Source: Schmidtea polychroa
Lineage: Eukaryota
DNA: 64,000 nucleotides
Reading direction: 5' to 3'
Assembly (NCBI GenBank): GCA_044892525.1
Contig: CM097885.1
Span: forward strand, 107,880,001 to 107,944,000
Below the pieces are notes generated by a model. It did not search any database, was not told where the DNA came from, and was given only the letters and a program-made list of their open reading frames with translations. The number at the start of each line of letters is the position of its first letter. Position 1 is the first letter of the stretch. A program made the translations under genes and the position numbers. Shown here piece after piece: positions 29,000-62,484 of this stretch.

Positions 29000-30669
29000 T
29001 CGGGCTTTTTAAATATTGATATGGCTTCTTTTCTACTTTTTTTCGCATATATGTTCACGAGGTACTTAATTAGGTTCATTCTATAATATTTGATCAGCTC
29101 GAAGTTGTCAATGACCCGTCCTCTGTCGTCTAACATGTATGTCGTGAGGGAGCTACCCTACCAGAAAGCTGATAATCGGAAAATTATGAGAATAATAAAA
29201 TCCACATCGAATAAGAATTTGTTATTAAAATTCTGTTGTAAGTTAATTTTTGAAAATGTTGCTCCTGCTGATAATATTACCATCTTGTTTTTTGCTTGGT
29301 TTTAAAATAATCTGCTTTTGTTCTTCCTTCTTTTCTTCTTCAGCATTTGTGAAAATTTCTTCTATCTTGTATTATCGTTATTCAAACAAACTTAAAAAAT
29401 ATTTAATTAATTATAAAATAATTAAACTAAATATAATATAATGTAATGCCAAGGCACTACCATGTGTATGAAAATGTGTAAGTACTTTTGTTGTAAAATT
29501 AAGACTAAGAAATTTGAATAATTAAAATTTATTTATATAAGTTACAATTTCTTCACAAATCATAATACAAATAACAATTAACAAATAAAGTATATTTAAA
29601 TATTTATATAATCCAACGTGTCCTTTTATTATTAAAACCACTATAATTAATAAACATTAATTATTAAACATCACTCTCATCCTCTTCATTTGTTTTTGCA
29701 TCTCTTCAGTCATTCAGTTCTTCTTGATTTGATTAAGTTTGGAAATTGTAATTCAACTTGTCTTGGTGATAAGAATTTTAAAATTTTGTAAGGTCCCTCA
29801 TATTGAATTCCCTCCTTCTTTCGTCTATGTGGTTCCAAACGAACTAATACTTAAATACTTAAAAATTTAAAATGTCTTTTGCCTGTTTAGGTAAAGATAC
29901 CCATCTTTCTATTCAGATTTCTTATCACTACTCGAATCGGCTCGATTTTCTTGGCGTGGTCGCCAGTTGCAATTTCTTCACAAATCATAATACAAATAAC
30001 AATTAACAAATAGAGTATTTAAATATTTGATGAAAAATTTTCAACTATGATGTTAAAGGCAATCTAAGTTAAGTTAAATTTATAGTTTATATTTTAGAAC
30101 TGATATAATTTTATAATTTATACTTTTAAGTTTATAATTTATATTTGGTGAAGTTCAATTTATAGTTTATATTCCTAAAGCTAATATAATTTTATAATTT
30201 GTATTTTTAAGTTTATAATTTATATTTTTATGAAGTTAATTTTATGGTTTATATTTTAAAGCTAATATAATTTTATAATTTATACTTTTAAGTTTATAAT
30301 TTATATTTGGTGAAGTTCAATTTATAGTTTATATTTCTAAAGTTAATATAAATTATTCCACATGGGTCTTGAGGGGAAGATTATGGTATTTGTTATTTTC
30401 TAAATCTATATATACATACACACATCCACATATATATACGTATACACATACACCCACACATATATACATATATGGATATAATTTAAATTAATAATATTGA
30501 TGCCGTTTTCCGGGGGGGGGGGGTGTTACTAAAAATAGATTTTAGTGATTTTCCGTAATTTTATTGGAAGATAGGGCCATTGAAACTAAATTTAGAGATA
30601 GGGGAATCCCAATTTCAATAATTTGTTATATAATTTTATTTTTATGAAATAAAGATAATTATTTTAATA

Positions 30670-30700
<31 letters not shown>

Positions 30701-33700
30701 AGTAATAATAATAGTAAGAGTNNNNNNNNNNNNNNNNNNNNNNNNNNNNNNNNNNNNNNNNNNNNNNNNNNNNNNNNNNNNNNNNNNNNNNNNNNNNNNN
30801 NNNNNNNNNNNNNNNNNNNNNNNNNNNNNNNNNNNNNNNNNNNNNNNNNNNNNNNNNNNNNNNNNNNNNNNNNNNNNNNNNNNNNNNNNNAACATTACTA
30901 CATATGGGGGGATCATTTTCGAAAATTTATGGAATTATTATTATTTTTTTTTTGGTTTGAAATACAATTTGACTCTACGAAGATGATACAATTCAGTATA
31001 CCTAAGGAATAGTTAATGGCTACATGATTTGAAGGGGGTTCATTTATGAAAATTTTCAATTTATATTTTAAAATATAATATAAGTTAAATATATATTAAG
31101 ATAAGCTAATTTAGTATATTTAGGTGGTAGTTGATGACTATATGGTTTATGGGGGGTCTTTGATGAAAAATTTTCAACTATGATGTTAAAGGCAATCTAA
31201 GTTAAGTTAAATTTATAGTTTATATTTTAAAGCTAATATAATTTTATAATTTATATTTTTATGAAGTTAAATTTATAGTTTATATTTTAGAACTGATATA
31301 ATTTTATAATTTATACTTTTAAGTTTATAATTTATATTTGGTGAAGTTCAATTTATAGTTTATATTCCTAAAGCTAATATAATTTTATAATTTGTATTTT
31401 TAAGTTTATAATTTATATTTTTATGAAGTTAAATTTATGGTTTATATTTTAAAGCTAATATAATTTTATAATTTATACTTTTAAGTTTATAATTTATATT
31501 TGGTGAAGTTCAATTTATAGTTTATATTTCTAAAGTTAATATAATTTTATAATTTATATTGTTAAGTTTATAATTTATATTTTTATGAAGTTAAATTTAT
31601 GGTTTATATTTTAAAGCTAATATAATTTTATAATTTATATTTTGATGAAGTTAAGTTTATAATTTATATTTTTAAAACTAATATAACTTTATAATTTATA
31701 CTTTTAAGTTTATAATTTATATTTTTATGAGGTTAAGTTAAATTTATAGTTTATGTTCTAAGACTAATATAATTTTATGATTTATACTTTTAAGATCATG
31801 ATTTATATTTTGAAGAAATTAAGATTATAATTTATACTTTTACAATCAACTTAGAGTTATAATTTATAATTTATAGTCAATGTAAATTTGTAATTTATAT
31901 TTTTAGGAAATTAAATTTATAATTTATACTTCTATAACTAATTATAATTTATATTTTTATGAAATTAGTATTATAATTTATACTTTTACAATCAACTTAG
32001 AGTTATAATTTATAATTTTTCAGTCAATATAAATTTGTAATTTATATTCTTAGGAAATTAAATTTATAATTTATACTTTTATAACTAATCATAATTTATA
32101 TTTTGAAGAAATTAAATCTATAAGTATAATTCATATTTTTATGAAATTGAGAGGATAATTTATACTTTTATGGGTTTACGATTTGTATTTTTATAGTTAG
32201 TTTAGAGTCTATTCAATTTAGTGTAGAATAATGTGAAGATGTTGCCCGAACTTATAAGTTATAGATATAATATTAGTAGTTTATAGATAAAGAGACTTTA
32301 TCAATATGTCTACGGGAATTTGCGCATACCAAGACCATTACGATAGAGAAATTTAGTTTGCATCAAAATAGGTTATTTTGTGGGCATCTATAGATATTAG
32401 TTCGCTTACCAGTGCGATTGAGATTATATCATCTTAGGTCCTACTCATCGCATGAACTTTAGGTTGCAGTATTCTTACAGGGAATGGTTCAAAATTTTTA
32501 AGTCTTTAATTGCCTTAAAAAAATTTTGCGCAGGGATCTCCTTGTTATTTTGAGTTAATTAGTTTCTTAGGTTCACATTGAATTTATAGTTTAAGAGGGA
32601 TTCGTTTAGAAATAACCAGCTACACTATCATGTTGTATTGTGTGAAATTTGAGTCAGGGGATATTCCCCGTTTATCAGTTCCTAATGTTGTGTGCAAAAT
32701 AGTATAATTTAAGTGTTAATTTAGGTATGTAAGTTAACGAAAAGGTCGATTTAATTAAAATTTACCTACTTTCCCGACTACACTGAGTACGGTACGATAG
32801 GCCCTATTGTAATATGTATCCACAATTAGTTTCCCATAATTATTTCGTCCGCATAGTCCCTGTGACTATGCCAACTACCAAGAAGGATTTATACGCCCTA
32901 CTCATGGTTAAACACCAATAGTTCGTGGCGACCTCTGGTTAAGATTATGATTTTAGTGCATGTAGGGTCGATGACCCGAAATCATTATGAACTGTGCATT
33001 CATAAATGATAAAGTGCATAGGTGCAGGTTTGGCTGGGATCTCGCTTCAAAATCATTGATAACCGACGATCTCATTCAAATCTACACCTCTATAATTAAA
33101 TAGAAATAATGAAAACAAGGTTTCAATAATAATAATTTATAATTCACAATGAAATCGTCCTTACTTACAATCTCAGAAAAATCAAAATCAAAAATTTGGC
33201 ATAAGAGTAAAAATATTCATTTTCATTTTTTTCCTTGCTTAAAAAGTGACGAAATGTGTTAGTTTATATAGCCTCTGTTTGACGTGTAAGTATACATGCG
33301 TGCATTGATGCAGTAAAACAAATTCAGATTATTTTAAATCTCGAACATTCGATTTTTAATTTTTATCGATTTTGATGGCAATTTTTCAGTAAGAATTTTT
33401 GTTTTTATTTTTGAAATTTTATTTTCGAATTATTTTTTATTAAATTTGCCTCCATGATGGATTTCAGCATTTCCAGAACAGTCCATGCTAAATTCAATCT
33501 ATTTCTTATTTTTAAATTGTTTTTTATGATTTCTTTTCTAAAATATTTATTTTTTAAACTAAAATATTTATTTTTTATAAATTTTATTGGGTCGTTTGGC
33601 CGTCATGGTGGATTTCGCCATTTTTATGAATTGTTCTGGATTTTTATTCAAAATATCGATATAATTTTCTTTACGTAAGATTTTATGAAGATTTTCTTTA

Positions 33701-33990
33701 ATTTTCTTTTTTAATTTTTACTAATCGCCTTTATTCGAATTTGTTTTTTGTTGTTTTATGTCTTTCGGTTATATTTGAGTAAGTTTTCGTGTAATACTTC
33801 TTGCTCGTGTTTTATTTTATTTTTAATTCAGATGTTTTATTTTTGGGTATATTATCTCTCTATTACCATTGTTTACTTGGTGTTTTATATATTTTTATTT
33901 AAGTAAACTTAATGCTGGGTATGCGTGTTGTGTACTGACACATTTCGTCCCATTCCCAACTTTGGGTCTAGAAATCAGTTCTAGCCCAAC
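29000..33990 (-). repeat. Modular ~5 kb unit C (inverted relative to units A and B), with decayed cargo ORFs
   Basis: 33195-33990 is the reverse complement of the 41304/46304 head segment; 32600-33100 matches 47160-47600; 30360-30660 matches 43650-43950. Stop-interrupted minus-strand coding remnants at 29.0-30.0 kb. Left boundary approximate. Confidence 0.75.
30040..32200. repeat. AT-rich minisatellite built on TTTATAATTTATATTTT-like units, with a local duplication
   Basis: Tandem degenerate repeats; 30027-30355 duplicates sequence within 31160-31540. Confidence 0.8.
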
Positions 33991-34049
33991 AATATTACTG
34001 TTCTTATATTGAATACTTTCACCAATTTTCAAGGGTGGATTAGTGAAAG

Positions 34050-34420
34050 ATTTTATTTTTCTTCCCATTAACCTTCAGCAGGCAAGTTATTGACTGTGTC
34101 AGCGAATACTTTGTGATTATAAAATTTTTTGAGAAGGTATGAATCGAACGATATGTTAAGATTCTTTATACTTCATATTTTTATCGTTGACTTTACGTTC
34201 TTTCTGCCATTCCATTCAAAGACTGATGATATATTAGTGAGTATAAAACATTGCATCCTTTTGCTTCAAGTCATATTTTTATTGATTTAAACTCTGGAGC
34301 ATTATCCATTACGACTGAGTTATGTGGTCCGAATGTGCAACACTTCCACCAGTCGAAACACGTCCTCCCGATCAGATCGCATACCCTCTAATAACTTCAA
34401 CAGTAGAGTTAAATATAAAT
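34050..34420 (-). pseudogene. Ty3/gypsy integrase fragment
   Basis: Minus-strand PHNSVVMDNAPEFKS...LEAKGCNVLYSLIYHQSLNGMAER matches the D-NG-EF and YHPQSNG.AER motifs; contains stops. Confidence 0.7.
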
Positions 34421-34759
34421 GCACTTCAACATCACGTCACAGAAGTGAGTTATGAAATTTTTAACAAGGAGCTCGTTCTTTTTTCCCCTCGAGAATCGTA
34501 TGAACTAGTACCCTAGTAATGTGTCACTGCGACTATGTTGGAAAAGCCTCCAGAACACGTCACGCGCTTCGTGCTTTATCGTGAGTATTCGAGTGATTGT
34601 ACATTCAAGTTCAAAAAATTTAGTTGCGCCACGTGATATTCCAAATTTAATCGTCATTGTTTGATGGGCATGACTTCGTCGCTTTACAAATTTATGTAAT
34701 GAAAATGATTTCAAGGTATTATATTTTCTTTCTGAAAAAATAGTTATCAAGAAGAACAA

Positions 34760-34844: not shown

Positions 34845-35569
34845 CCTATAAATCATGCACAATGACTCATATTTCGTTAAATTTCTATCATTATCGATTC
34901 TGTCCGAGATGTTATTTTATTAATTTAAAAGCAATTCTTTTTATATACAACCCCTTCATGCCTATGAGACTCGTGGATTCGGATAGAGAAATGGCTTGAT
35001 CGTTATTCGTAAGTTGGAAGTGAATTATATATTTGCTTCTATTAAATCAATTAATATAGGTTAAAATAAGTTAATTATCCCTGTAATTTAATGTAATTTA
35101 TTCATGTCTGATGCATTTCAAATTTGAGCAGGTATTCACCTTTATTGTATTCGTTTATTTCCTAATCTCAACTTAAAATTAACTTTCAAAAGTTTAGCCG
35201 GGATCTGTTCTCATTTTATTTGCCGGATTCCTTGAAAGTAAAGTTGAAGTTGACTTTTGAAATTTTGACAGGATCCATCCTTATTTTATTCATGTATTTC
35301 CTTAAATTTAAGATTATTATTGACTTTTGAAAATTTTTGTTCATTTAAGGACAATGATCTGACTTATAACTTCGACGTACATTTTCGGTACCACTCTTAT
35401 ATTTCTTTTATTTTTTGTTAGGAATTTGAGTCTAAAATATATGAAATACTCGTTACCAATAACCCACTGGACATTTAGGGAACGAACTCTTAGTGTCATA
35501 TGACATAATGATATGATGTATATGGACATTTTAGATTATTTTCTGTTATTGTCGTTTGTTTTAGTGCCT

Positions 35570-36560
35570 AGTTCTTATTTTCTTTTAATTCTTAGATTAT
35601 TTCTTTTTACTTTTTGCTATTTTAATTATTGAATTTTGATTTTTCGTTAACTTTGTTACATCATTTGGCGTCCATGATGAATTTCGCTATTTTTAATGGA
35701 TTTTTTAGTTTTACGGTTATAGTTGTTATCCCTCAGATATTTTTTCGATGCTAAATCTTTCTAATTTCTGTTCATATCCCTTTCCATTGCTATTTAATTC
35801 AAATTTGCTTACTGCTATATGTTGCGTTTGAGATAATTTTATGTGATACTTCTTGCTTTAGTCTCATTTAATTTATTTTTGGGGTTTATTAATTTGATGT
35901 CATGTGAATTATGTTAAGTGTTTATTTGGTTTTTGGATGGGTTTGAGTTTGACTCGACTTGATGTTATACATGCTTGCTGTGTGCCAACGCCTCTCAGTC
36001 ACAATTTAATCACTTGGGTTTAATGCTAGTTCTAGCTCAATAAAACATAAAAATAAATAAAATTAAACAACAAGACCAACAAGTATTTCACGAAATAAAC
36101 ATAAATATAACATAGAAAAATAACATGATAGACTCAAATTTGAATTCATGGAGATAAGAGAAAATATATACTAGAAATAAAAGAATTTCACTGAAAATAA
36201 CAGATAAAATAATTTACAAATACAATTCATATAAAAAAAGATTGAAATCACTAGAATATTCTATTTTTGGCCAAAAAGTGATTTTGAGCTCACGCAGATA
36301 TAGTATCATTTGAATGCGTTGGAAAATAACACGTGAACACAACATTAAGTGAAGTTAAACTCAAAACACGTTAAAACATCAATTTAACACAATTAAAAGA
36401 ACCTACATAACACCAAAATGATAAACAAAAAAGTAAAATAAAATGAAACAAAAAGCAAGAAGTATTGCACGAAACGAACTAAAACATAACGTAGACAGAT
36501 AACAAAAGTAAAAAAATTTAAATAATGGCGAGATAAGAAAAGTAGGAATAAAAAAAGTAG
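35570..36560. repeat. Partial, back-to-back copies of the modular-unit head segment (unit D)
   Basis: A minus-strand head motif (...GAGCTAGAACTAG...AGTGATTAAATTGTGACTG) and CCATGATG at 35570-36040 abut plus-strand AAGCAAGAAGTATT-type fragments at 36040-36560. Confidence 0.55.
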
Positions 36561-37399
36561 GAATGGTACGACCAAACTAAAAATCTTGGCACGGCATTGG
36601 ATCTTGCTAATTAAAATTGATCTTATTGGTGGAGTCACAAATATACATGGCTTACCGGTTGTGTGCATGATAATTTTACACGAGAGCTCACCAGAAGAGG
36701 ACTTAGTCGGAGCGTTAGGAGGTCCCACCTTCCATTCGCCTAGGTCCCACTTCAGTAGAGGAATTTAAAGAATTAACTGCAATGACAGATAGACTACCCC
36801 AATCTATTTTATTTTAATTTTAAATGAATGTTTTGGCTGTTGGCCAGAAAATTTGATTGTGCATTTCTCAATAAAAAAGATGATCATGCGAAACATTAAA
36901 ATAAAGATAAAAACAAAAATTAATAAAATTAAACAAGTGCATATGACATTACATGATGACTGCAAAATGTAAAACCATTTATACTCACTTCTAAACAATT
37001 TGAATTATTGCAAAATTTGTAAGGGCATAAAGAATTTTTAAAAGTCGTACTTTCAGTAAAGCATTTATTTATATTTTATTCATGCGAAGTTTTACCTATT
37101 CACCACAACGTACAATTAAAAGCTGAATAAGCCTTTTGAAAGAGATTAATATTAGACTTTAAATATAATATTTAAAATTATCCATATATATACTTCTTTC
37201 GTTCCTTTGGTAGGGAAATGTGTAAAACAAGTCTCCATAACTTCATATTTAAAAATTCCCACTTGAAAATTACGGTTTTCGAAGCGAATAGGGTTAATTA
37301 CCATTTAAATACTGAATGAGCACCCGCAATGTAATTATTATGTTTAAATAAATATTAAATGAACTAAATTTAATAGTAATATTATTGTGAAAATGATTT

Positions 37400-39061: not shown

Positions 39062-39460
39062 CTTTTATAATTCCTATTATATGCAATTTATTGATTTATT
39101 TAATAAATTTTTTTACTATTATCAATTAATTCATTAATTATCTAGATTTTTTCAAATAACTTTGAAATTGAGCGTCTAACCATACCAGGACAATTGTGAT
39201 CAACCAACGTGAATAGAGTGTTAGTAGGAATATGACCCATGGGATATTTGGCTTGAAAAAATTTAGGGTGGAGAGGTTTTTAATTTTTTCTTGTTTAAAA
39301 ACATTAAAATTTATTCTTAAATGAAAAAGTTCTCATAAAAATTTATATTAAAAATTATCTTTGTAAATTTCCATTAAAAACTATTTCATACAAATTTGTA
39401 TTAAAAATTTCATTATATTAAATTATTTCTCAAATGTAGGTGTTTTTGGAATATATAATA

Positions 39461-40465: not shown

Positions 40466-42850
40466 TACATTAAATACATTCATTTTTAAAATTATTACTT
40501 TAACTTACTTAAGTTAAATTTTTACTTTACTTTTTTTTAAATTATTACATATTTACTTTAATTTCCCAAGCGACAATGTTTCTTCAAAATAAAGTTACAT
40601 TAATATACCTTTTAAAATTGCATAAACCTAATTTAAAGAACATTACCTTAATTTACTTTTTTAATTAATGTAAACTTTATTTCTCAGTTAATAGCACTTC
40701 TTAAAAATCTACTGCTTATTTAAAATATTACTTTAATTTTAAATACTTTATCGCTTCTAAAAATAACTTACCATAAATTACTGTACAAAATACTCCCTTA
40801 CTATAGTGCTTCACATTGACATAAAAAACATGTCGGACACGGCAGCAAAGGCTATTTTAACTGTATTTTATAAATTTATTTTTATTGTGAAAAAATTAGC
40901 TAGAGTTTTTTAATTAATGAAAAAATGTTTCATTAAAAAATTAGGCTTATTGTTTAAATAAAATATTTATTCATGAAAAAAAATTTATTTTAAGTTTTTC
41001 AAAAATTAAAAAAATTTTTTTTCATTTAAATATAAATTTTAATGTTTTTATTCAAGAAAAAATATTTAGAGTTTTTTCATTGAAAATTTATTTTTATGCT
41101 TTTCAAGGAGAAGTGGGACTTCAAAAAATATCTTCAAGCCAAATATCCCACGAGTCATAGTCTTACTAATACTTACTAATACTCTACTAACGTGATGCCA
41201 TTACGTACTAGACAGCTTGAAAAAAAATATTGATTTTCCATTGTTATATTTTAATTAATTTTTCACTTCAATTTATTTTTTGAATTATGTTGTATTTGTT
41301 TTGTTGGGCTAGAACTGATTTCTAGACCCAAACTTCTAATTATGACTGAAATGTGTAGGTACACAACATGCAAAAAGCAAAAAGTATAGCTAAATATTAA
41401 AAACTACACCAAATAAACAATATTAATTAAAGGAGAAAATAACAAAAAAATAAACACAGAAATTAAATAAAATTATACAAAAGCAAGAAGTTATGCAAAA
41501 TAGAACTCAAAAATAACCAAATAAACACAGAGTTACAAAAAACAGACTCGAATAACTTAAAAACGGTAAAAACAGTATAAAATTCCAGAAAAACCCAGAA
41601 CATTCCATAAAAATGGCGATGACCATCACAAAAGCCATCTAGAACAACAAAAGTTAGAGAAAATAAATAAATTAGTATTAAAAATAAAAAATCTTAAAAA
41701 GAAATTCATAAAACATCAGTTAAAATAAAAATAAAATTAAAATTAACATGGAATGTTCTGGAACCGTTCCAAATCCATCATGGACGTCAAATTAACGAAA
41801 AATAATTAAAAAATAAAAACAAAAATTATGGCACAAAAATTGCCATTAAAAATAGCAAAATCGCAAAATAGAAAATTCTGAAATAAAAAGAATTCGAGTT
41901 TGTTTTACTGAATCAATACATACACGTGTACAAAATAGGTATATATACCGACACGTTTCGGTCATAATTTAATCACTTTTATGCCAATTTTTGAGCGAAA
42001 TCTTGTCAACACAAATAGTGAGTATTGATGATTTATTTTTCATTTTTATTGTATCGATGATTTATTGAGGTTAAAATTAAAGTGATTTTATAATTTTTCT
42101 GTTGAAATTATTTTTAAGTGATGTACGAATGTTCAACGGCGTACCGGTATTCCTGCGTCGTTGTTCGGTCCTGCATCCAATTTATTAAAATTTATAGGAC
42201 ATGCAGACATGCATTATTAATATTATAATGATCGCATATTATATGAATCTTTTTGTTCGGGTCCTTCGGAGGTCGAACTACTTCATGGTCCGGCCATGGA
42301 GTTGGGTCGAGGAAACCCTCCGTCTGACTCTTCGTATCTATTAAAGGTCAGCCGTAAATGGTTGACTTAATATACAACAGTAAGGTTTGTTGAAGTGGTC
42401 ACAGTGGGGCTGCGGAGGCAATAACTCTTCCCGACTTTTATTTAATACACATGTAAAATCAACATTCAAAATCATGAACAACGTCTCTACACTAAGGTCC
42501 TAATTTGAGTAGAACTCATACCTAAATTTACACAATTCTGCAATCACATCAATGTAGCTGGTTGATCAATAATAGTAATTTCAAGTATACTTAGACAGAT
42601 GCCGAACTAGATTTTGTAATAGGAGTTTATTGTAAAGTAATGGAAATGAGAAAGATAGTCGGCATATGCATAAGTATGACTTAATCTAGATAGGCTAATT
42701 CAAAGTAAATGTAGGTATTCTAAATCCAATTCCCACTTTAAAATATGCACAAATGTATGAATACTTAGTTACCATTTTACAATTATTTGTAAGATCTTAG
42801 AGATAATGATATTGAGGTAGATCATTAATGGAAAATCCCGATTAGAAGTT

Positions 42851-43103
42851 ATAGATTTCATGTATAGGAATTTTTATAACTAATTATACAACTTCAGGAA
42901 TATAGTTTATGAATAGCTACCAATAAACTTGAAAATAGATTTTATGTATAGGAATTTTTATAACTAATTATACAACTTCAGGAATATAGTTTATGAATAG
43001 CTACCAATAAACTTGAAAATAGATTTTATGTATAGGAATTTTTATAACTAATTATACAACTTCAGGAATATAGTTTATGAATAGCTACCAATAAACTTGA
43101 AAA
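42851..43103. repeat. Three tandem copies of an 84-bp unit
   Basis: ATAGATTT(C/T)ATGTATAGGAATTTTTATAAC... starts at 42851, 42935 and 43019. Confidence 0.9.
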
Positions 43104-45052
43104 CATTTTGGAAAACTATGATGATCTCACCAAAGTAAACCATCAAAAGTCATGTAAGCTGACTAGAAGTCCAGAAATTGTAAAGTATATAATTATAAAA
43201 TTATAAAATTATATAAAAAAATTATATAAATTATATAAAATAATATAAAGTTATATAAAATTATATAATTATAAATCCTAAAGTATAAAAACCTAAAATC
43301 GTGAATTATTGTAAACTTCAAAATATATAATTATAAATTAGAAGACCTAAATCCCTAAATGGTAAAACATAAAATTATACTACCATTATTATTATTATTA
43401 ACACTATTATTATTATTATTGTCACTAAGGTTATCATCATTATTACTATTATTATTAGTATTGCTGTTANNNNNNNNNNNNNNNNNNNNNNNNNNNNNNN
43501 NNNNNNNNNNNNNNNNNNNNNNNNNNNNNNNNNNNNNNNNNNNNNNNNNNNNNNNNNNNNNNNNNNNNNNNNNNNNNNNNNNNNNNNNNNNNNNNNNNNN
43601 NNNNNNNNNNNNNNNNNNNNNNNNNNNNNNNNNNNNNNNNNNNAATTATTAATCTTATTTCATAAAAATAAAATTATAAAACAAATTATTGATTTTGGGA
43701 TTCCCCTATCTCTAAATTTAGTTTTAATGGCCCTATCTTCCAATAAAATTACAGAAAATCAAAAAAAAATCTATTTTTAGTAACACCGCCCCTGCAAACG
43801 ACATCAATATTATTAATTTAAATTATATCCATATATGTATGCAGGTGTGGGTGTATATGTATATATATGTGAATGTGTGTATGTATATCCAGATTTATAA
43901 AACAACCTTACAATAATACGATAACCTCCAAGACCCATGTTATATAATGGCCACAACCCCTTTAAGGTAATAGCATGAAGAAAAATAATTTACTAAAGCA
44001 ATTTATTAAAATAATTTATTAAAATTATTAGATTTATTTTCAACTCAAATCAAAAAGAGACTAAATTTATTAATTTCAATCACTAAATTTCTGACAAAAT
44101 TAGGTTCAAATCAAATCAAAAGACGAGACTCAATTGTAAACTAAGTTTATTAATTTCAATCACCAAATTTATTTACATCATGGTTTCTTTGAATCATATT
44201 CATGCCAAAGTCCTTCGAGTACAGTTGATGGACCAGCCCAATGAAATACATCTCCTGGGGTTGGAAAGCTTTTGGGTGATTCCTTACTTTCCCCTTCAGG
44301 TCTTTTCTTTTCTTGGTTCAATGACTTGCATATTGCTTTGATGTAATAATGTTAGATGGTCAACTATATTCCTTGCATCTCTTTTGAGTGGTCATTGTCA
44401 GGTAATTCCGCCAGGAAAATTAGTTGGTGGAACTGACCTTGGGGCAACCAAGTCTTCATACCTCATCGAATTGTTATAAACCCGACTACTAAGGAAATCT
44501 CTGAATTTTCTCGTTGATGTTGTCGGCGATCTTTGCTCATCAGGGGTGTCATGATACGTTGTTGGTCAAAGGTGATTGTTTCGGGAGTTCGGCCGACTAC
44601 TGATATTACTGAAATATTATTAAAAAGTTTATGATATAAATATTTAATATTTTAATTTATTTACATTATTATATCGAAATTAACTAAAAATTATATACTT
44701 ATTCGAAATTTACTATTTACCATTAATTGTAATTACAATAATAAAACAACGAAAATTTAAATAATGTTAAATGACTTTGACAAAACCAAAAGTGATAATG
44801 AAATCAAAATTCCATTACTCTATTTAAATTATTAGTTACCAACTTTTTCTATTGGATAAAATTCCTTCTAATTTAATTAATTAAAAATCATATCGGTAAA
44901 TTAAATCGAAAAATTCATGTTAAAAGTATTCATATTAATTTTAGTAAAATTAGTAGTTAAAGTATTATTTATTTTTCTTGGTATATTTTATCATAACGTC
45001 AATTTGTAAGCCACATTGGCGATGCGCGGGTCTTAATATTTATAATACAGGC

Positions 45053-45417
45053 ATGTCCCAATCAGACGATTACAGTGATGAAGAAACCCACCGGCAAATG
45101 ATGACCCGGATCCGTACGCGGTATATTTGGTACCGCATCCACGACTGGAATCGTGGATTGGACCTTGACAACTTTGGCCCGTTATCAGAAGTGGCCCGGA
45201 ACCGGATGCCCCGGCATGGGTGAAGACGGAGCCGGAGAACAACACACTCCGAGAGGCCCGGGATCAAGCAGCCAGTGATGTGGAAGCCGCTCAGATCCGG
45301 CTGAAGCAAATAGAATTGCAAATTTGAGCCAAGAGAGAGGGAGTATCCCTGGAAGAACTCGAGGAGGCCGAGACAACTCCACGAAAGAGAGGAAGGCCCC
45401 GCAAGCATGCCGTGTGA
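45053..45417 (+). pseudogene. Cargo ORF-A1 (paralogue of 50551-51033): coiled coil plus C-terminal AT-hook, disrupted
   Basis: The N-half WYRIHDW matches WYKIHDW. After a frameshift near 45170 it reads KTEPENNTLREARDQAASDVEAAQIRLKQIE (matches KVEPYLNHAS...DAIDRLHRLE), then a premature TGA at 45325, then TPRKRGRPRK. Confidence 0.7.
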
Positions 45418-45684
45418 TTATGGGATGACAATTTACTTGACTATTTTATTTGTATATGAACTAAATAATAGAAGTTGTCGGTGTTTAATTCATTTTCATT
45501 TGTACATTAGTTAAATATGAGTAGTCGTCGGGTGTTTATTCTCGAGTAAAATATCTTCCTTTTGTTCTGTAAATCACTTGATAGATGGAGGAGTTGTAGA
45601 GATGCCCTAGTAGAAAGCGTTACTATTAATTCATTAATTTTACTACTTATTTGTTTAAATTTTCCTTGAGCGTAATCGGTACTA

Positions 45685-46170
45685 ATGAAATTCCTTTTAG
45701 TGTACAAATTAATGGAGAATCTACGTAAAGATCGGGAGCAGGCCCAACAACAAGCCGACGAACTCCGAGTCCGAGGGAATAAGTTGAAAAGGAAATGTCG
45801 GGAGCTCGGGGGGACCTGGTTTAGTCCCGAGGCAATGAAAAAGAAAACAGCTCAGATTCTCCAACTGCAGACACAAGCAAATCAAGACCAAATGGAGATC
45901 CGCGCCCTGAAATTGCAGGTGCGGGCACTCGAAACCGAGCGTAATGAACAATTTATCCAGGAAGCCGTGGCACGACAAATACGGCCGCTGACCGTTGAAC
46001 TCGCAACAATATATCCTCCAGCCGCGGAAGGTAAACCCAAACGAAAGCGGCTTGGACGGAACATTCGGGAGAAGTTAAAAAAGGCCAGATTGGCCGAGTT
46101 CGAACGGCAAGCAAATTCATCGCAAGCGTCTACGACGGGGTTGGCCAGCTCTACCAACAAGCCGATTTGA
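45685..46170 (+). CDS. Cargo ORF-B1: coiled-coil protein with a basic C-terminal patch, unknown function
   Basis: GC-rich ORF homologous over its whole length to 51450-51914 (DREQAQ, CR..xTWF, QLQ, QDQ.E.RAL, IRPL). Homology starts right after a shared TTTAG/TG acceptor, so the true 5' end may be spliced. Confidence 0.75.
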   Translation: MKFLLVYKLMENLRKDREQAQQQADELRVRGNKLKRKCRELGGTWFSPEAMKKKTAQILQLQTQANQDQMEIRALKLQVRALETERNEQFIQEAVARQIRPLTVELATIYPPAAEGKPKRKRLGRNIREKLKKARLAEFERQANSSQASTTGLASSTNKPI

Positions 46171-49100
46171 ACCTGTATTCTGTTTTATATATTTCTGTAG
46201 TATGCCTTGTATATTTGTGTAGCATTAAAATAATAAATATTCTTGTGGTGTTAAAATAGTAATTTTTAGTATCAAATAATGTCTGATATATTTTATGATT
46301 GTGTTGGGCTAGAACTGATTTCTAGACCCAAACTTCTAATTGTGACTGGAATGCGTAGGTACACAGCATGCAAAAAGCAAAAAGTATAGTTAAATATTAA
46401 AAACTACACCAAATAACCAATGTAATTAAAGGAAAAAAACAACAAAAACCTAAAACACAGAAATTAAATAAAATTATACAAAAACAAGAAGTTATGCAAA
46501 ATCTAACTCAAAATAGCCAAATAAACACAGAGTTACAAAAAACAAACTCGAATAACTTAAAAGATGGTAAAAGTAGCAAAAAATTCCAGAAAAACCCAGA
46601 ACATTCCATAAAAATGGCGATGACCATCATAAAAGCTACCTTAAACAATAAAATTTAGAAAAATAAATAAATTAGTATTAAAAATAAAATTTCTTAAAAA
46701 GAAATTCGTAAAATATCAGTTAAAAATAAAAATTGAATTAAAAGTAATATGGAATGTTCTGGAACCGTTCCAAATCCATCATGGAGGAAAAATTAGCAAA
46801 AAATATTTAGGAAATAAAATTTTAAAAATAAAAATAAAAATTATGACGCAAAAATCGCCATTAAAAATATCAAAATTACAAAATAGAAACTTCTGGAATA
46901 AAAAGAATTCGAGTTTGTTTTAATGCATCAATACATACACGTGTACAAAATAGGTATATATACCGACGCATTTTGGTCACAATTTAATCTTTTTATGCCA
47001 AAATTTTTCTTGAAAAATTCGGAACCCACTAATAGTAAGGACGATTGATTAATTTTATCATGATTGTTATTTAATTTATAATTGTTATTTTATTATTTGT
47101 GATTTCATTTCATTATATTGATTAACTTTTTGTTTTTTTTGTTTAATCTTACTATTACGAAATAAGAGTGAACAGCATTGTGAACGGGTTATAGTCACTA
47201 TACTGGTCAGCCTTGTTTCCAATTTAAAGACTACATGCACCATTTTTGGGTCTACGACCCCACATGCATGAAATATAAACCCCTTTTATTAACCGGAGGT
47301 CGCCACGAACTAATGGTTCTAACCAGGAGTAGGGCGGTAAACCCATACCGGTAGTTGGCATAGTCATAGGGACTATGCGGACGAAATAAACTTCGGGAAA
47401 GTAATCGCGGGAAACATACTACAATAAGGCCTATCGTACCGTATCCAGTTGGGTCGGGAAAGTAGGAAAATTTTAATTAATTTGACTTTTCAGTAAACAA
47501 CATACCAAAAATCAACACTTAATTCTGATATAGGAAACAGACCACTAGGATCATCTAAACGGGAAATATCCCAGACTCAAATTAATATAGGGACTTTCGG
47601 TAGTCGGCTAATTGCTTAAACTCATATCTGATATTAACTAAATTTAGTATTGTTATTCATAATTTTGTTTAATGTATTTTGGTTCACGATCAATAAATAT
47701 TTTATAAATCCCTCAACAATTTTTATTGCCTTTATGCATATCGAAATGTAAATGATATAAAATCTTCAAAGAAAATTTTGAGTCCTAATAATACTATCCA
47801 TTTGGGTGCCCTTACTACTATCATGCTTGGTTTTCTAACATTACCTTAGTTAAGGGTATATCCTTGCCATATAATGGCATATATAAGTATATTAAACTTT
47901 CTTAATACATATTTACCTTATGTTTAGAAAAGGATAAATTATAGATTTTCTCAAATGACCCCGGCATATATATATACCACCCAAATGTCCTAAAGGAACC
48001 TATTTTAATGTATAGTTTTAGATAGTGATATGTTCAAATGATAATTTAGCAATTCCCATCCTTAGGATCCTTATTATTATTAATTATTATTATTAATTTC
48101 CAAAAATGTATTATCTTATGGAAGTATATAGGAGTATACAGTTCCCTTAAAGTATATTTAACTTATATTAGGTTCAGAGAAAGCTAAATCACAACTTTCT
48201 TAAATGACCCCCCCCCCCCGAAATATACCTTCATTAACCGTTGTGCCCTATTATTATTATTATTATCATCTCCATCATTCTTACTAATATTATTGTTACA
48301 ACGAGCATTATTATTAATATATTTCGTGTTAGTATTATTACTATTAATTTAATATTGCTATTACAATGAGTATTATTATTATTACTATTAATTTAATATT
48401 GTTATTACAATGGGTATTATTGTAAAAATATNNNNNNNNNNNNNNNNNNNNNNNNNNNNNNNNNNNNNNNNNNNNNNNNNNNNNNNNNNNNNNNNNNNNN
48501 NNNNNNNNNNNNNNNNNNNNNNNNNNNNNNNNNNNNNNNNNNNNNNNNNNNNNNNNNNNNNNNNNNNNNNNNTTATGGTTATTCTTATTAANNNNNNNNN
48601 NNNNNNNNNNNNNNNNNNNNNNNNNNNNNNNNNNNNNNNNNNNNNNNNNNNNNNNNNNNNNNNNNNNNNNNNNNNNNNNNNNNNNNNNNNNNNNNNNNNN
48701 NNNNNNNNNNNNNNNNNNNNNNNNNNNNNNNTTATCCTTATCATTAGTATTCTTATAATAATTATCATTATTATTACTGTTAGGATTATTATTGTAGTTA
48801 CTATCACTGTTGTCATTATTATTATTATTAGGATGATCATTATTAATGTTCTTGATATTACTGTTTTAGTGCTATTACCATTAACACTTCCACTCTTATC
48901 ATTGCCACTATTATTATCACTACCCTTGTCATTGCGTTGTTAATTAATTATTACAAATTTTTTTAATTAGCAATTTGGGATCCCCCTATGGCTGAAATTA
49001 ATCGCAAGAACCCTACCTTGTTACTATATAACCTACTTCAACAAATATACTGATTTCCCTAATGTTACTAAAAATAGAACCGATATTATCGATTTCCTGT

Positions 49101-49599
49101 TCCTTATATAAAATGCAGCCAATAAAACTGATCCTATTTATGGAAACAACCCTGCAAATTAAGGGAACCCTCGCCGAGTCTACCCTAACCATCTAAATAG
49201 ACGAGACATACATACTCATAGACGAGCCAATCAACATCAGCTAAGACAGCAGGAACTCTAACCTTCATGTAAAACCCATGACACCCCAGCAGATTTAACC
49301 CTGGTACCCCAGAAGTAGATCCCATACATACCAGAAAGGACAAGGGATATTTTCCCCAAGAGCGACTGCTTAAGCTGGAATGTATACCCGGTACAACTAT
49401 AAACTAAGAATAATGAGGAGCATATATTATAGTTATAACTGCTAATTACTTAAAATGAAAAACAGAAAAAACTAACAACATTGTTTAATAACTATTCCTT
49501 TACGCAAAATAAATTATTTACTTAAATACAACAAAAGCGAAATATCATTTAATGAAATCAAACATTTATTTAATAAATCATTTTAGCCATTATAAAGTC

Positions 49600-49999
49600 T
49601 CACTGATGATGTGGAAGGGTGAATGGAAGGAGAGCCACTCTTAATTCCTTCAAGTGCAAAATTTTTTTTTTCTTAAATTCCCACGGCCTAGCTCCAAATT
49701 TGAAATGAAAAATTTCCATCTGAACTCCTCATAAATTGAGCATGTCGGCATATATTGGGCCACTGCCAAATAATATTATATCGCATACATTATCCGAGGG
49801 AAACGTCATGCCCAAAACGGAGGTTTTGGGAAATCCAGATCTGAAATAAACGAACTTAACAAGATCTAAATTTGATTTACCCATTAATTAGCAGTAGATG
49901 ATTTAGCCACCTACAACCACTATGGTCAAGGATTGTGAGGAGCCGAAATAAATTCGGACAGTTAACAATGCCGTTTTCCATAGTGGGTCTTAGTAGCAT
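49600..49999 (-). pseudogene. Possible spliced minus-strand cargo gene (40-nt intron 49841-49880, one internal TGA)
   Basis: Removing GTAAAT...TTTCAG joins MLLRPTMENG...LLING to SGFPKTSVLG...; the frame stays open past a single TGA at 49729-49731 to 49600. No recognisable family. Confidence 0.35.
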
Positions 50000-50550
50000 A
50001 ATTTTGATTGAAAAGGAAATTTTTTTTTTAAAAAAGGAAATTATTATGGAATAATAAATTAACCTTTTAATTGAGATAAACAAACTCATTCGAATAGGTA
50101 ATTCTAATTTAATTTACGAAATTCAAATTTTTCAGTTAATTGATTCATATCAAATATTTATTTTAATTCAACTTATGCAATTTTATTCAAATATCAAATA
50201 TTTATTTTAATTTAATTTATGCAATTTCTTTCAAATATTTACTTTAATGCGAAATTGTCTACCTTAATTTTGCCCTACCCCCCTTAAGTTGATAACCTAA
50301 GTCACCAATCTGAAATGTAGGAACTTGATTTAATTTAGCAATCTGGAACCAATTTATTGAATTGGGTATATGGACCAAATATAGAAATAAATTTATAAAC
50401 TAATTTACGTTGCCTAGAAATCATGGTCTGTTGAATTGGTTGTGTGTCATGCGTGTACATAAATTGTAACGAGGTATTTGGATGTTTTGGAGTGATCAAA
50501 CGTAACAGAAGTGTAAGGATTTGTTCTAATATTTTGGTTATATTACAGTC

Positions 50551-51033
50551 ATGCCCAACACCAGGTCAAGGAATATGCAGGCCGGCCCCTCATCAGTCGA
50601 TTCGAGCCTAGAAATTACCGGCGAGGAAGCAGACGAAGCCGTCCGATTGAGAGAGGACGCAGAAATCGCCCGGCTACGGTCCAGGTGGGTCTGGTACAAG
50701 ATCCATGATTGGACTTACCAGAACGTGATCCCCGTAATTCCGAAGGTGGAGCCTTACCTCAACCACGCGTCGTTAGCCTTGATCGACGCTTTTGACGAAG
50801 TGACGGATGCGATAGACCGATTACACCGGCTCGAGAAAGCGACTCTGGCTGGCGAGGTAGAAGACTGCGACGGCTACGCTCGAGCCCAATGTCACCCGAA
50901 ACGGACCGCGGCTCTTCAGCGTGGATTAAAATACCCAAGACGGCCTCAACGAGGACCAGGACGACCAAGGACACGCGGACACACGCGAACGTCCACCCGC
51001 TCGACCAAGGAGAGCGCGGGATTTGGAGAGTAG
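50551..51033 (+). CDS. Cargo ORF-A2: 160 aa, acidic N-terminus, coiled coil, basic tail with a GRPR (AT-hook-like) motif
   Basis: Intact GC-rich ORF. Its ATG follows a TACAG acceptor plus 2 nt, exactly as in ORF-A1. Confidence 0.75.
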   Translation: MPNTRSRNMQAGPSSVDSSLEITGEEADEAVRLREDAEIARLRSRWVWYKIHDWTYQNVIPVIPKVEPYLNHASLALIDAFDEVTDAIDRLHRLEKATLAGEVEDCDGYARAQCHPKRTAALQRGLKYPRRPQRGPGRPRTRGHTRTSTRSTKESAGFGE

Positions 51034-51449
51034 GCGGAAAACTCGGGATCAAAACTAATCATTTTGTGCTGACCTCAGTGTCGGGTGTATTAGGTGATAT
51101 TATGTACTGGATTAAACCTCTTTAATCCAGGATTGAATAAAATATGTTAGGCCTTAACAGTTCATCATAATTATTTAATGTTTGTTTGTGTCTTGATGGT
51201 CGGTGACAACTTAATGGGGTGGATTGTTTGAATTTTTGCAATGTCCATGACGTGGAATATCGTCATTGTTGACTACACATTTCTATAGCGACAACAACCC
51301 TATAGGTTGAGTAAGATAAATAGGTCTCGGTCTTGGGGCGCGCGTAGCGAAGGACTACGACGAGGGGATTACTTTCTTTTAGCCTTAATGCCCATAATAA
51401 TGTTCGACCCTCGATGTCGATGTAAAATCATTGATCTTACCTTTGTTTA

Positions 51450-51914
51450 GTGCAGAAACTCTTGGAAGAGATGCGAGCTGATAGGGAACAGGCACAACGA
51501 CAGGTAGACGAATACCGGACCAAGTTGACCCGAGTCAAGACCCACTGTCGGAACTTCGAGTGCACCTGGTTCCCACCAGCGGAGATGAAGAAGAGGATGA
51601 AGTTGATCACCCAACTGCAACTTCAGAATGCTCAAGACCAGATTGAGTTGCGGGCCCTCCGCTTAAGGGTGAGGGAACTGGAAGCCAAGGTGCATCAACA
51701 GGAGCTGGAGCGAGAGGTCATTGCCAAGATCCGGCCTTTAGATGAGTTGCTCCATCGACCAAAAGAACCTGCCCCCACAATAGTAACCCCAAGGAAGAAG
51801 ATTCGGCCGGGAAAAGCGGCACGAGCGAGGATGAGGCAGGCCAGCCAGGCCCAATTAGCTCTCCATGCTACTGAATCAGAGGCTACGCCAAGAGAACCGA
51901 CCAGCACACGATAA
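51450..51914 (+). CDS. Cargo ORF-B2: coiled-coil protein with a basic C-terminal patch, unknown function
   Basis: Paralogue of 45685-46170 with amino acids conserved despite many synonymous differences; begins at a TTTAG/TG acceptor. Confidence 0.75.
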   Translation: MQKLLEEMRADREQAQRQVDEYRTKLTRVKTHCRNFECTWFPPAEMKKRMKLITQLQLQNAQDQIELRALRLRVRELEAKVHQQELEREVIAKIRPLDELLHRPKEPAPTIVTPRKKIRPGKAARARMRQASQAQLALHATESEATPREPTSTR

Positions 51915-52027
51915 GCGATTCATGTTGTCAAAATAAATCTTCACAGTGCGTCCATAGCGGGCATTTTGATTTCCTTTTATTATAATGTTAATTGTTGTAA
52001 CGGGGACGAAAAGAAATCGGAAATAGG

Positions 52028-52235
52028 CCTTCTAACGGCAGTCCGTGAACCCCAGTGGGTGCTAGACAATTATAGTATGTTAAGCATGCTCACTTTTTGC
52101 TAGTGCCCAAACCCTTGATACAGTACCAACGTTGATTGCTCAACGGGTATCAAGTGGTCAGCTATAAATTGTATCCTGGGTTACGCTGGAAACAGCATGA
52201 GGAGGTAAAAAGATTTACAGTACCTGTAACCCACC
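52028..52235 (+). ncRNA. Candidate multi-helix structured RNA, copy 1
   Basis: Helices GGGTGCTAG/CTAGTGCCC, CTTGATAC/GTATCAAG, CGTTGA/TCAACG, GGGTTAC/GTAACCC and GCTG-GAAA-CAGC; compensatory changes relative to the other copies. Confidence 0.6.
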
Positions 52236-52313
52236 AATTGCCTGAGAAATGAGAGTTTGTGCGTAAGGTTGGGGAAACAATTTAGATAAGGGACCTGAGA
52301 AATCGGACACACA

Positions 52314-52515
52314 CCTTCTAACGGTAGTCCGTGAACCCATAGAGTACTCGACAATTATAGTGCCTTGATGCGCTCACTTTTTGCGAGTACTCAAACCTTG
52401 GTACAGTACCAACGTTGATTTCTCAACGGGTGCCAAGCGGAACAACAATGTTGTATCCTGGGTTACGCTGATAACAGCATAAAATCGTAATTAATCGACC
52501 ACCAGTAACCCACCA
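52314..52515 (+). ncRNA. Candidate multi-helix structured RNA, copy 2
   Basis: Same architecture with GAGTACTCG/CGAGTACTC, CTTGGTAC/GTGCCAAG and GCTG-ATAA-CAGC. Confidence 0.6.
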
Positions 52516-52599
52516 GTTTTCTATGTGTTGTACACAATTTTTTGTTCACTTTATTTTTATTAGTACTTCCTTGCCTAATAAAATATAATTGAAGAATTA

Positions 52600-54600
52600 A
52601 AATTAAAACTAAATAAAATATGATAGACTAAGTTACGTAAATTTTTGAAATATTGGTTTTAGTTAATTATTTAGGATTTTTCTGATATACAAAGGTTATT
52701 TATGTGATTAATGGCTTTTTGGTATTCTTTATCCAAAGGTTTTATTGGGTAGATTTCAACGAAAATCTAAAAATGAAGATAATTGATTTCATTGCATATA
52801 TTTCACATTAATGATGCTATCATGATAATAAGATCCACTTTGTTAGTATAAGTCATACTTTTATTTAAAATTTTCCAAGTATTTTTTAACATAGAAAAAT
52901 AATTTTGAACTCTAACTTAGCCTCCCCTTCCCTCCGGCCATTTAGGATTTTTCAAAAATTCGGCTGTCCTTTTAACAAAGAACTTTTATAGATTTTTCGT
53001 TTTAAAGGAATTTTTTTTATTTTATGATCATAATAGGGTCGTGTGTACTCTACATTATGGTTCTATTCGATGGTTCAACCAAGGTAGGTGAGTCAAAACT
53101 TTCAAATGGTAAAAAATTTTGATTTTCTTAAACATGATTTAAAGATCGACACCATCATGGAGAACATGTTGGATCATAACTTACAAGGTTTCAAAAACGT
53201 TGACATTTATTAAATTAATTAAAAGTAAATAAAATATAAAAATCATAAAATAAAATAAATGATAAATTATAAAAATTCGCCTTCATATGTGATAAAAGTT
53301 AAAATTCACAATTAAAAATAAGTGTCCAATTAAATTAAAATAATTCAAATTTTCTTTACTGAATCAGTGCACGCACACATATTCACACACCAAAATGAAA
53401 CAATATATAATCCAACGCATTTCAGTTATAATTTAATGCTGAAATTTTGGGTAAACCAAATTTTTCAATTAGCACTCGTGAAAATCGAAATTATGTATGG
53501 AAGTAAGGAATTTTTCTTTGTATGTCATGTTATGATTCAATTATATAACGAAATTATAGATTCTGGTTTTTGTTTTCACTTTTTATTAAAATGAAATCAC
53601 TTTCAATGGTTAAAATCAAACACCTTTTTCGCCCCACAGTTACTAGATGAAACTGCAAGTCAGTAAAATGAAAGCATATCTTGACCTACGATGAGGGAGG
53701 CATTTCTACTGTACTGTTAATCGGTAACTTCTTGTAATGGGTAACCCTAACCCTAACGCCCCGGTGTCTACAACTGGAAAGATCGTGCGTGTCCGTACCA
53801 TGCTCACTAAAGGGAAAATGAGTAACCACGTAACGTCAACCGCCAAGGTCAATTTATATAGGAGATCGGGAATTAAGTCGAGCTTTATAGTTCGGTAGTG
53901 ATTCTGTTGAGGTTATAAAATAATTAAAAGTAAAATTAAATTATATTTGTAATTGAATGAATGAGAGAAGTATAAAACTGGTCAGGGAGTGAATTGAAAA
54001 CGCGAAGAAATAAAATAGGTAGAAAGGCCCGAGAAGGTACATTAAAGGGCACGTGGAGTCAGAGGTCACTGATTTGAATTAATAAATCCCAACTTTTCTA
54101 AAGGTCTTAATACATAACACTAAGTGCTCGTCACACTATTGTCCAGTGGGCCGTGTGGGACAGGCAACTTTTTTTTATTGTTATAATAATCGACTCATAG
54201 AGCACTTAGGCAACAAACCTAAATTCAGCATTTAAACTACAGTATTTTTATCTGTTAAAAGACACTAAGAGCACATTCTCCTAATATCTTGTGAGCTATG
54301 GGTAAGTAGTATCTAAACTATTATTGAATTAAACTTCTGACAAATTGCAATGAGAAATGAGCGAGAAAAATAAAATCCATCAATAATGTTAGTCAATCGA
54401 ATAGTACAAATTAAAATCATTTGTGTCAAATCATTGTGCGAAAAAAGGGCAGATCCCTGCTCAAAATTCTTGAGAGATAGTTTTAAATAACGATTATATC
54501 GGAAAAGAGTAAATAAAAATAAGGGCGGTCCATGCTCAAATTTTAATTAACGTTGAAACTTAGAACTAAACTTGCAAAAGGGCGAAATAAAGGCGGATTC
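52600..54600 (+). repeat. Strongly diverged further copy of the unit scaffold (unit E)
   Basis: CCATCATGGAG at about 53153; TTTACTGAATCAGTGCACGCA at about 53355 (head-segment tail); CGTACC...GGGAAA at about 53795; AGATCCCTGCTCAAAATT at about 54450 (matches the reverse complement of about 32520-32540). Boundaries approximate. Confidence 0.45.
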
Positions 54601-54618
54601 CCTTAAGTTGGACACAGG

Positions 54619-54805
54619 TCTTCTAACAGTAGTCCCACGCTTGGATTCTCGGCGACTAAAGTGTACCGGAGTAAGCTCACTTTTTGCGAGTATTCACCCA
54701 TTCGATACAATTCCTAATGGCTATCGAGAGGTAAAGCAATGTTGAATTCAGGATTACGCTGGAAACAGCACTGAGAGGTATAGTTTGATTACTTGTAACT
54801 TACCT
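54619..54805 (+). ncRNA. Candidate multi-helix structured RNA, copy 3 (more diverged)
   Basis: CTTCTAAC...GCTCACTTTTTGCGAGTA...TCGATA/TATCGA...GGATTAC-GCTG-GAAA-CAGC...AGGTA/TACTT-GTAAC. Confidence 0.5.
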
Positions 54806-58296: not shown

Positions 58297-58321
58297 GGTG
58301 TATCAAATCAAAACCTTTCTT

Positions 58322-62481: not shown

Positions 62482-62484
62482 ACA

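Follow-up and report, generated by a model that had tools for sequence, protein, structure and literature searches.

Diverged repeat units in Schmidtea polychroa as putative 3' long terminal repeats of a large retroelement with a predicted spliced antisense gene pair

What kind of element leaves behind diverged units that share a head and a common block order, carry protein-coding cargo, and hold no enzyme gene? The question is raised by a 64-kb stretch of the planarian Schmidtea polychroa (GenBank assembly GCA_044892525.1, contig CM097885.1, positions 107,880,001 to 107,944,000; ~25% GC), to which the analysis was confined and which is hereafter called the window. An earlier note on this DNA had described an array of such units and proposed three explanations, namely a large long terminal repeat (LTR) retroelement, an endogenous multipartite virus, or a non-autonomous gene-carrying element. 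Of these, the first is best supported, by TGTT..AACA termini spaced 2.5–3.5 kb apart with a G-rich tract at the position expected of a polypurine tract (PPT). We read the stretch as a decayed nest comprising five or more copies from a single family of large LTR retroelements, represented by 3' ends, and the units as 3' LTRs with a predicted spliced antisense cassette of two genes, here designated A and B; based on sequence features, each of these two statements is given a probability of roughly 0.55. The earlier note probably took the unit from its wrong end.

Self-comparison showed that the same 31 nt open three heads, at 41302 (+), 46302 (+), and 33991 (−), belonging to units 1, 2, and 3, respectively. 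The two plus-strand heads lie exactly 5000 bp apart and are 88% identical over about 700 bp, and the inverted head is 67%–69% identical to them; the first 31 nt are identical at the LTR end, while elsewhere the head matches at only ~20 of 31 positions. The order from head through a GC-richer structured block and a tandem or TTA tract to a GGGAT(T)CCC block is kept in all three copies, as had been proposed. The earlier count of three near-complete and two partial units held for the three heads and for diverged partial copies at 35600–36900 and 53150–54815, but not for the completeness of the inverted unit, which lacks A and B (tblastn) and is cut at about 30353, where, 170 bp beyond the GGGAT region, a duplicated part of its tandem array intervenes. 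Similarity among units is a mosaic: the structured block is 78% identical between units 2 and 3 with a weak match in unit 1 (E 0.002), and the GGGAT block, 84% identical when units 1 and 3 are compared, can hardly be aligned in unit 2, so that a cargo far more diverged than the head describes this pattern only in part. Consistent with the reported absence of intact reverse transcriptase or transposase genes, no Pfam match to reverse transcriptase, gag, integrase, or transposase was obtained in the units (23 open reading frames [ORFs] of the repeat region and all 161 stop-free segments of 28.3–56.8 kb, scanned in two passes of 149 and the other 12).

The boundaries of the units indicate which part of an element they represent. 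Three segments (Table 1) each run from TGTT to CCCAACA; about 85–170 nt beyond the GGGAT motif, every copy has AACA followed by a C-rich tract, which on the other strand is a G-rich tract followed by TGTT. Flanks beyond the head end are unrelated, and flanks beyond the opposite end are homologous, from which it follows that each segment is an LTR bordering internal sequence at a single end only. The G-rich tract abutting TG fits the PPT arrangement of a 3' LTR, and together with the TGTT..AACA termini it fits a long LTR with its PPT, read opposite to the head. The integrase attachment (att) consensus of animal Metaviridae, given as TGTTRNR..YNYAACA in the section of PMC3601003 consulted, is fitted at seven of seven positions at the head end and at six, six, and five of seven at the other end in the three copies. 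Only seven TGTT sites with an equally G-rich upstream 10-mer occur on both strands of the 64 kb, and these include the sites of units 1 and 3 and not that of unit 2. The inner boundaries of units 1 and 2 match at a score reached by 5 of 1000 local shuffles (p about 0.005), in a region that is otherwise unalignable. The family is most likely of Ty3/gypsy type, the pol sequence that would separate gypsy from BEL/Pao, or place the copies within Burro, being missing from the units. A different delimitation, with the head as a 700-bp LTR and unit 1 lying between an 88% identical LTR pair, was dropped, as there is no PPT before 46302, no primer-binding site (PBS) after the head, and homology runs past the head.

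On the head strand, a TATA box lies ~640–720 nt from the LTR end in units 1–3, and another is found at 53404 in the partial unit; next come a conserved stretch, an ATG, and a GT(A/G)AG splice donor. The distance from ATG to donor is 3n + 1 in four of four copies (Table 1), three of which are open, and the nearest AG acceptor before each of the exons A1, A2, B1, and B2 is in phase 1. Downstream of B, both cargo units carry an AATAAA 60–70 nt from the end of the unit. Taken together, the TATA box within the LTR, a 3n + 1 leader, and phase-1 acceptors predict alternatively spliced antisense accessory genes; the signals and phases of such a spliced antisense mRNA, with its first coding exon in the 3' LTR, are conserved at the level of the DNA sequence. 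The heads are strongly A-rich on their own strand, with an AT skew of +0.33 to +0.41 where the SD for the window is 0.10; in units 1–3 this skew flips sign at the TATA box, which suits a divergent promoter and a T-rich repeat (R)/unique 5' (U5) region on the PPT strand. Initiator-like CAGT/CATT motifs are found on the PPT strand 35–55 nt from the TATA box, at variable spacing.

The cargo had been described as variable, but units 1 and 2 carry the same two genes. B1 and B2 are 41% identical in amino acids, with differences by codon position of 42/33/56, and 26 of their 49 identical residues are encoded by different codons. A1 and A2 share the motif R-x-R-x-x-W-Y-x-I-H-D-W (9 of 17 residues, E 1e-7) and end in RGRP or RGPGRP tails, which we take to be AT-hook-like. 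A and B would represent two protein families without a match in Pfam at E ≤ 0.1. Public relatives of B, P0006 and P0007, are encoded on short contigs, are 73%–74% identical, and retain the L-V pair at the acceptor position of B. In a third protein, P0008, similarity (32%, C-terminus) starts at that same position, and the N-terminal part is a calponin-homology domain; judged from these sequences, P0008 is read as a chimeric gene model that took up a B exon. Only two matches to B were found among 1.84 billion representatives, none of 598 and 238 pattern matches was confirmed as a locus by a B profile, a weak search of 8000 candidates gave no longer fused form of B, and no A2 homologue was found among 198 candidates. 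The ESM Atlas contained nothing at 0.9 or more for B and nothing for A. The AlphaFold model of B (predicted local distance difference test 78.5, predicted template modeling score 0.33) has four long helices and a C-terminal basic helix of the type K-x-R-P-G-x-A-A-R, without a significant fold match and without a viral fold match at E ≤ 0.001; an HDAg-like fold was rejected (rank 38, E 2.8).

Under the antisense reading, each unit would consist of a 3' LTR of 2.5–3.5 kb and 2.5–2.9 kb of adjoining internal sequence, with gag-pol missing. We infer a replication sense opposite to the head, running through the G-rich PPT, TGTT, a unique 3' (U3) region with the TTA tract and tandem repeats, the structured block, a T-rich stretch of ~600 nt, and CCCAACA. 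The TATA promoter, ~640 nt from the LTR end, would fire in the opposite direction to express an antisense RNA, whose first exon (ATG plus 11–22 codons, phase 1) would be joined by splicing over the LTR to either of two terminal exons, namely A for a small AT-hook-like protein or B for a coiled-coil protein with an Arg/Lys motif. This RNA would end at the poly(A) signal after B. A and B probably act in the nucleus to regulate the element, as HBZ does for HTLV-1 (the type 1 human T-cell leukemia virus).

Structured RNA elements accompany the units. Two tandem copies of a 230-nt element (C) follow unit 2, and a third lies downstream of the diverged partial unit (starts 52005, 52291, and 54598; folding z-scores −3.1, −4.2, and +0.15, respectively). 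Of 55 predicted pairs, 11 are changed on both sides, a number reached in none of 500 shuffles and compared with one to two in slid controls; this covariation is suggestive rather than proof, because the structure was derived from the same three sequences. The alignment folds at an energy of −48.2 against a column-shuffle null of −16.2 ± 2.8. The element would be an RNA structure without a match in Rfam, and its covariance model recovered only the three training copies, the next match having E 0.1. In the diverged subfamily, C comes directly after a motif that unit 3 carries inside its LTR, and by this position it probably belongs to the LTR in that subfamily. Within the LTR, the structured block folds below its null on both strands, with just four double changes, from two sequences. 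The sequence TAACCCTAACCCTAAC at about 53744 is absent from the homologue and was regarded as chance. Unit 2 ends in TGTAAC followed by GGGG (51993–52004), which may be one end of a different LTR or may merely belong to the C repeat unit. Unit 1, and not unit 2, carries a decayed NDUFA7 copy between PPT and A, flanked on either side by a 13-bp AT-rich direct repeat. It lies on the inferred sense strand, a weak point in favor of the antisense reading, and may be a transduced or a later retrocopy.

Several observations weigh against the antisense reading. The candidate PPT of unit 2 is short and interrupted by pyrimidines, and the PPT regions of units 1 and 3 are not independent, because they are 84% identical. 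A 16-mer from the start of the LTR of unit 1 recurs inverted in unit 2, ~90 nt inside LTR 2, so the motif may instead be a protein-binding site. The window contains no partner LTR or near-identical LTR pair and no consistent target-site duplication (TSD), with isolated AT-rich matches only, which is compatible with truncation. There is no TGG-type tRNA PBS after either LTR end, as is expected if the copies are 3' LTRs only, and neither gag-pol nor a 5' LTR is present in the window; the checks for TSDs and a linked gag-pol suggested in the earlier note thus found neither. In the LTR, the sense strand showed no conserved TATA/AATAAA pair. As to the predicted splicing, the unit 3 leader has in-frame stops, the A exons have an ATG of their own two bases in, B2 offers another AG, in phase 0, and the agreement in phase does not amount to eight independent trials, because the copies are homologous. 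Random truncation does not account for the fact that both cargo units stop 60–70 bp past the poly(A) signal of B, at a TG in each case. The head strand also carries AATAAA 44, 28, and 42 nt before AACA in three of three copies, and it folds better than the PPT strand for both C (−48.2 vs. −34.5) and the LTR block (−62.4 vs. −54.5).

These last features suit an alternative that keeps the same LTR boundaries and reverses the polarity, with the head as U3 of a 5' LTR (TG, TATA at +640, a long intron-containing R, AATAAA, AACA) and with A and B as sense accessory genes upstream of a lost gag-pol, as are the upstream ORFs of Ogre and Burro, priming being by something other than a tRNA 3' end. The order TG-TATA-AATAAA-CA on the head strand in three of three copies, the strand preference of the RNA structures, and the occurrence of upstream accessory ORFs in Burro-like elements all speak for it. 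However, what comes after AACA is a C-rich sequence with variable run length and no TGG; a complement of at least 8 nt in the LTR, unspliced or across any GT..AG joint, was found in none of the three copies; and R would be 1.8–2.8 kb long, with the poly(A) signal of B sitting upstream of gag-pol. We therefore consider reversed polarity unlikely, if worth keeping in mind. The idea of a non-autonomous gene-carrying element retains some standing because both cargo units stop at the same distance past the same poly(A) signal. In this version, the 5-kb module of LTR plus A/B cassette would itself be the mobile unit, similar to large retrotransposon derivatives (LARDs) or derived from circles, in head-to-tail arrays and never accompanied by gag-pol. 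Units 1 and 2 are indeed flush, both ending directly at TG, at least five diverged copies lie within 25 kb, and the units contain no enzyme gene. Against this, LTRs 1 and 2 are 88% identical in the head only and 46%–60% beyond it, and are therefore not an LTR pair; there is no PBS or self-priming complement after the LTR end (best 8–11 nt, AT-rich); and the sequence after unit 2 is not a head. Such a module appears rather unlikely.

That the locus is a nest of unrelated repeats, their shared order being accidental or the result of old local duplication, is improbable. While the similarity is a mosaic and the neighbors are ordinary transposable element debris (remains of a small gypsy element, elements with inverted repeats, and a Polinton), the same order is found in copies just 67%–69% alike, the splice phase is kept across blocks, and relatives of B exist in other public data. 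Even less credible are integrated segments of a multipartite DNA virus with a common region and different genes. Such segments would be in keeping with the hairpin at the terminus, within the first 31 nt, with the promoter region common to the units, and with the single poly(A) signal that each unit has, but both units carry the same, homologous gene pair, the termini are LTR-like, viral contigs gave no matches to the DNA pattern or the protein, and no viral fold matched at E ≤ 0.001. We regard this second proposal of the earlier note as very improbable.

If the 3' LTR interpretation with its antisense cassette is correct, known systems offer partial parallels. Burro/GYPSM1, the giant gypsy element of Schmidtea, resembles the copies here in its very long LTRs, tandem repeats, accessory ORFs, and AT-rich, flatworm-like host; the portion of PMC6431247 consulted implies Burro LTRs of at least 2.5 kb each, as deduced from an internal part of up to 25 kb and a total of over 30 kb, and describes no antisense spliced genes, which are predicted here. 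Compared by description only, Burro encodes a polyprotein of ~4900 aa with gag, MATH, BIR, BCL2, env-like, and pol parts, whereas no polyprotein and no BIR, MATH, BCL2, or env domain is found here; the portions consulted of PMC8532177 and PMC11410931 add nothing on Burro structure. In function, the region would be comparable to the 3' region, with its antisense ORFs, of Retand/Grande-type elements. Plant gypsy elements with antisense ORFs lying between pol and the 3' LTR are known, according to the portion of PMC7264820 consulted, which also urges that antisense and spliced transcripts be looked for in elements of this kind. As excerpts of PMC7264820 and PMC11963269 describe them, Retand, Grande, and RIRE2 share with the present copies antisense ORFs of unknown origin beside the 3' LTR, several kilobases of extra 3' sequence, tandem arrays, and coiled-coil (Smc-like) or DNA-binding products. 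Unlike them, the host here is an animal, neither A nor B has a Pfam match to the Retand-type TRP28 (Transposase_28) domain, and the LTR itself would contain both the promoter and the first coding exon, with a choice of two terminal exons, while the excerpts place the promoter of Grande gene23 in its own upstream region.

In splicing layout, the predicted cassette resembles HTLV-1 HBZ, which, in the portion of PMC1459196 consulted, starts in a first exon in the 3' LTR. Both HBZ and the predicted cassette would have an antisense transcript from the 3' LTR, a first coding exon in the LTR, alternative splicing, and a poly(A) signal of their own. The HBZ product is a basic coiled-coil protein of the basic leucine zipper (bZIP) type; B also combines a coiled coil with a basic region, yet has no sequence or Pfam similarity to bZIP. 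The SP1 and SP2 variants of HBZ belong to one gene, whereas here one leader would serve two different 3' exons. Further differences are that the present element has a TATA box here and is not a deltaretrovirus. LARDs and miniature terminal-repeat retrotransposons (TRIMs), such as the cestode ta-TRIM in the part of PMC4558846 consulted, also lack gag-pol and have TG..CA termini, a PPT beside the LTR, and occasional tandem copies, but the present LTRs are more than 10 times longer, have no matching pair, PBS, or TSD, and adjoin a protein-coding cassette. Penelope-like elements and retrozymes carry a hammerhead ribozyme in the terminal repeat, and none is found here (Rfam scans of 26–64 kb and of both structured blocks). 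In splice-junction-primed or self-primed LTR elements, the primer site is complementary to the element's own (spliced) 5' RNA, and here no consistent complement of this kind was found in either polarity. Antisense accessory genes have been described for deltaretroviruses and plant gypsy elements, and a spliced two-gene version in an animal retrotransposon would, if true, be a convergence on the HBZ layout. More tentatively, and with less confidence than the antisense reading as such, it is possible that an invertebrate LTR family independently evolved an antisense unit in the style of complex retroviruses, in which a divergent promoter in a 2.5–3.5-kb LTR drives one coding leader joined to an AT-hook A or a coiled-coil, Arg-rich, RNA/DNA-binding B. 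B may act on the 230-nt RNA as a pair resembling Rev and the Rev response element, and modules of LTR and cassette may also move non-autonomously.

Table 1. Positions of the putative LTRs, predicted exons, and associated elements in the window
Feature	Position	Strand	Details
LTR 1	41302..43785	− (inferred retroelement sense)	2484 bp, TGTT...AACA
LTR 2	46302..49148	−	2847 bp; inner boundary as in LTR 1 at 21/28 columns
LTR 3	30524..33991	+	3468 bp; 81-bp tandem array
G-rich tract abutting LTR 1, candidate PPT	43786..43797	−	GCAGGGGCGG; 8/12 purines
Candidate PPT of unit 2	49149..49158	−	GCAGGGT; short; 7 purines among the 12 nt next to the LTR
Run of 12 G abutting LTR 3, candidate PPT	30512..30523	+	12/12 purines
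Unit 1 TATA (41940) and leader exon	41940..42017	+	ATG 41981 to donor 42018, 37 nt, phase 1
Unit 2 TATA (46955) and leader exon	46955..47034	+	ATG 46995 to donor 47035, 40 nt, phase 1
Unit 3 TATA and leader exon	33169..33270	−	ATG 33202 to donor, 34 nt, phase 1; in-frame stop
Partial-unit leader (TATA 53404)	within 53150..53503	+	ATG 53436 to donor, 67 nt, phase 1
Predicted exon A1	45051..45420	+	phase-1 acceptor; broken (frameshift, internal stop); RGRP end
Predicted exon A2	50549..51033	+	phase-1 acceptor; 160 aa open; RGPGRPR tail
Predicted exon B1	45701..46170	+	phase-1 acceptor; coiled coil and basic motif; AATAAA 46232
Predicted exon B2	51451..51914	+	phase-1 acceptor; AATAAA 51932; 74% identical to P0006, 32% to P0008 C-terminus
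Conserved structured block inside LTR	47244..47583	+	homologues 32646–32981 (−), 78%; about 42250–42540 (+), weak
84-bp tandem repeat (x3) inside LTR 1	42851..43103		
Structured element, two tandem copies (C1, C2)	52005..52524	+	230 nt
Structured element, third copy (C3)	54598..54815	+	~1.2 kb downstream of the diverged partial unit's TATA
Decayed, frameshifted NDUFA7 (Complex I B14.5a) copy	44166..44666	−	PF07347, E 1.1e-7, above cut-off; unit 1 only
Scrambled remains of diverged subfamily	35100..36900		head at 36042 (−), two + head pieces, leader/block piece 36568–36899 (−)
Diverged partial head	53150..53503	+	TATA 53404, leader

The head motif had no matches in metagenome contigs and none in viral contigs, and no RNA dataset was among the sequencing runs listed as sharing the window's words. 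Of these runs, four from a single study contain 0.62–0.65 of the words and may be the source, and eight with shares of at most 0.20 were left out of the evidence. No description of the cassette was found in the flatworm-element literature searched; Repbase, Dfam, and Grohme 2018 with its supplements may already annotate it. No small nuclear RNA or tRNA was found, and matches to mir-297 were rejected as low-complexity and far under the gathering score.

Remains of other elements surround the nest. On its right, a Polinton/adintovirus-like gene set (57796–63631) comprises an rve integrase with a chromodomain, an A32 ATPase, a short TBP head-to-head with the ATPase, and a weak Bcl-2-like ORF; the integrase ORF contains an in-frame (TAT)n tract that is probably intronic. 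To the left of these genes, a palindromic array rich in TGACTCA/TCAAGGTCA (56779–57448), preceded by a C-run at about 56723, is possibly the Polinton terminal region. Fragments at 54746–55300, without a Pfam match, are by eye presumably hAT-transposase-like. An internally deleted gypsy remnant at 29540–30028 (−) has two LTR pieces that are 94% identical, the primer-site-like motif TGGCGACC, and a C-terminal SH3 fragment of an integrase (PF24626, E 0.026). Beside LTR 3, at 34000–34500 (−), we take decayed motifs seen by eye to be integrase-core-like, without Pfam support. A single-exon ORF of 554 aa at 37400–39064 is rich in Cys and His and has internal repeats, with no convincing Pfam family and no exact match in the protein collection. 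Nested inverted repeats at 39217–41173 (39217–39264 with 41126–41173, and about 39459–39497 with 40429–40467) are probably remains of DNA transposons, and an ORF remnant within them is presumably PHD-finger-like. Adjoining the repeat nest is an intact, single-exon, host-type NTAN1 at 26268–27359 (PF14736, E 2.7e-51), and a 181-bp near-perfect palindrome (98%) lies at 5401–5581.

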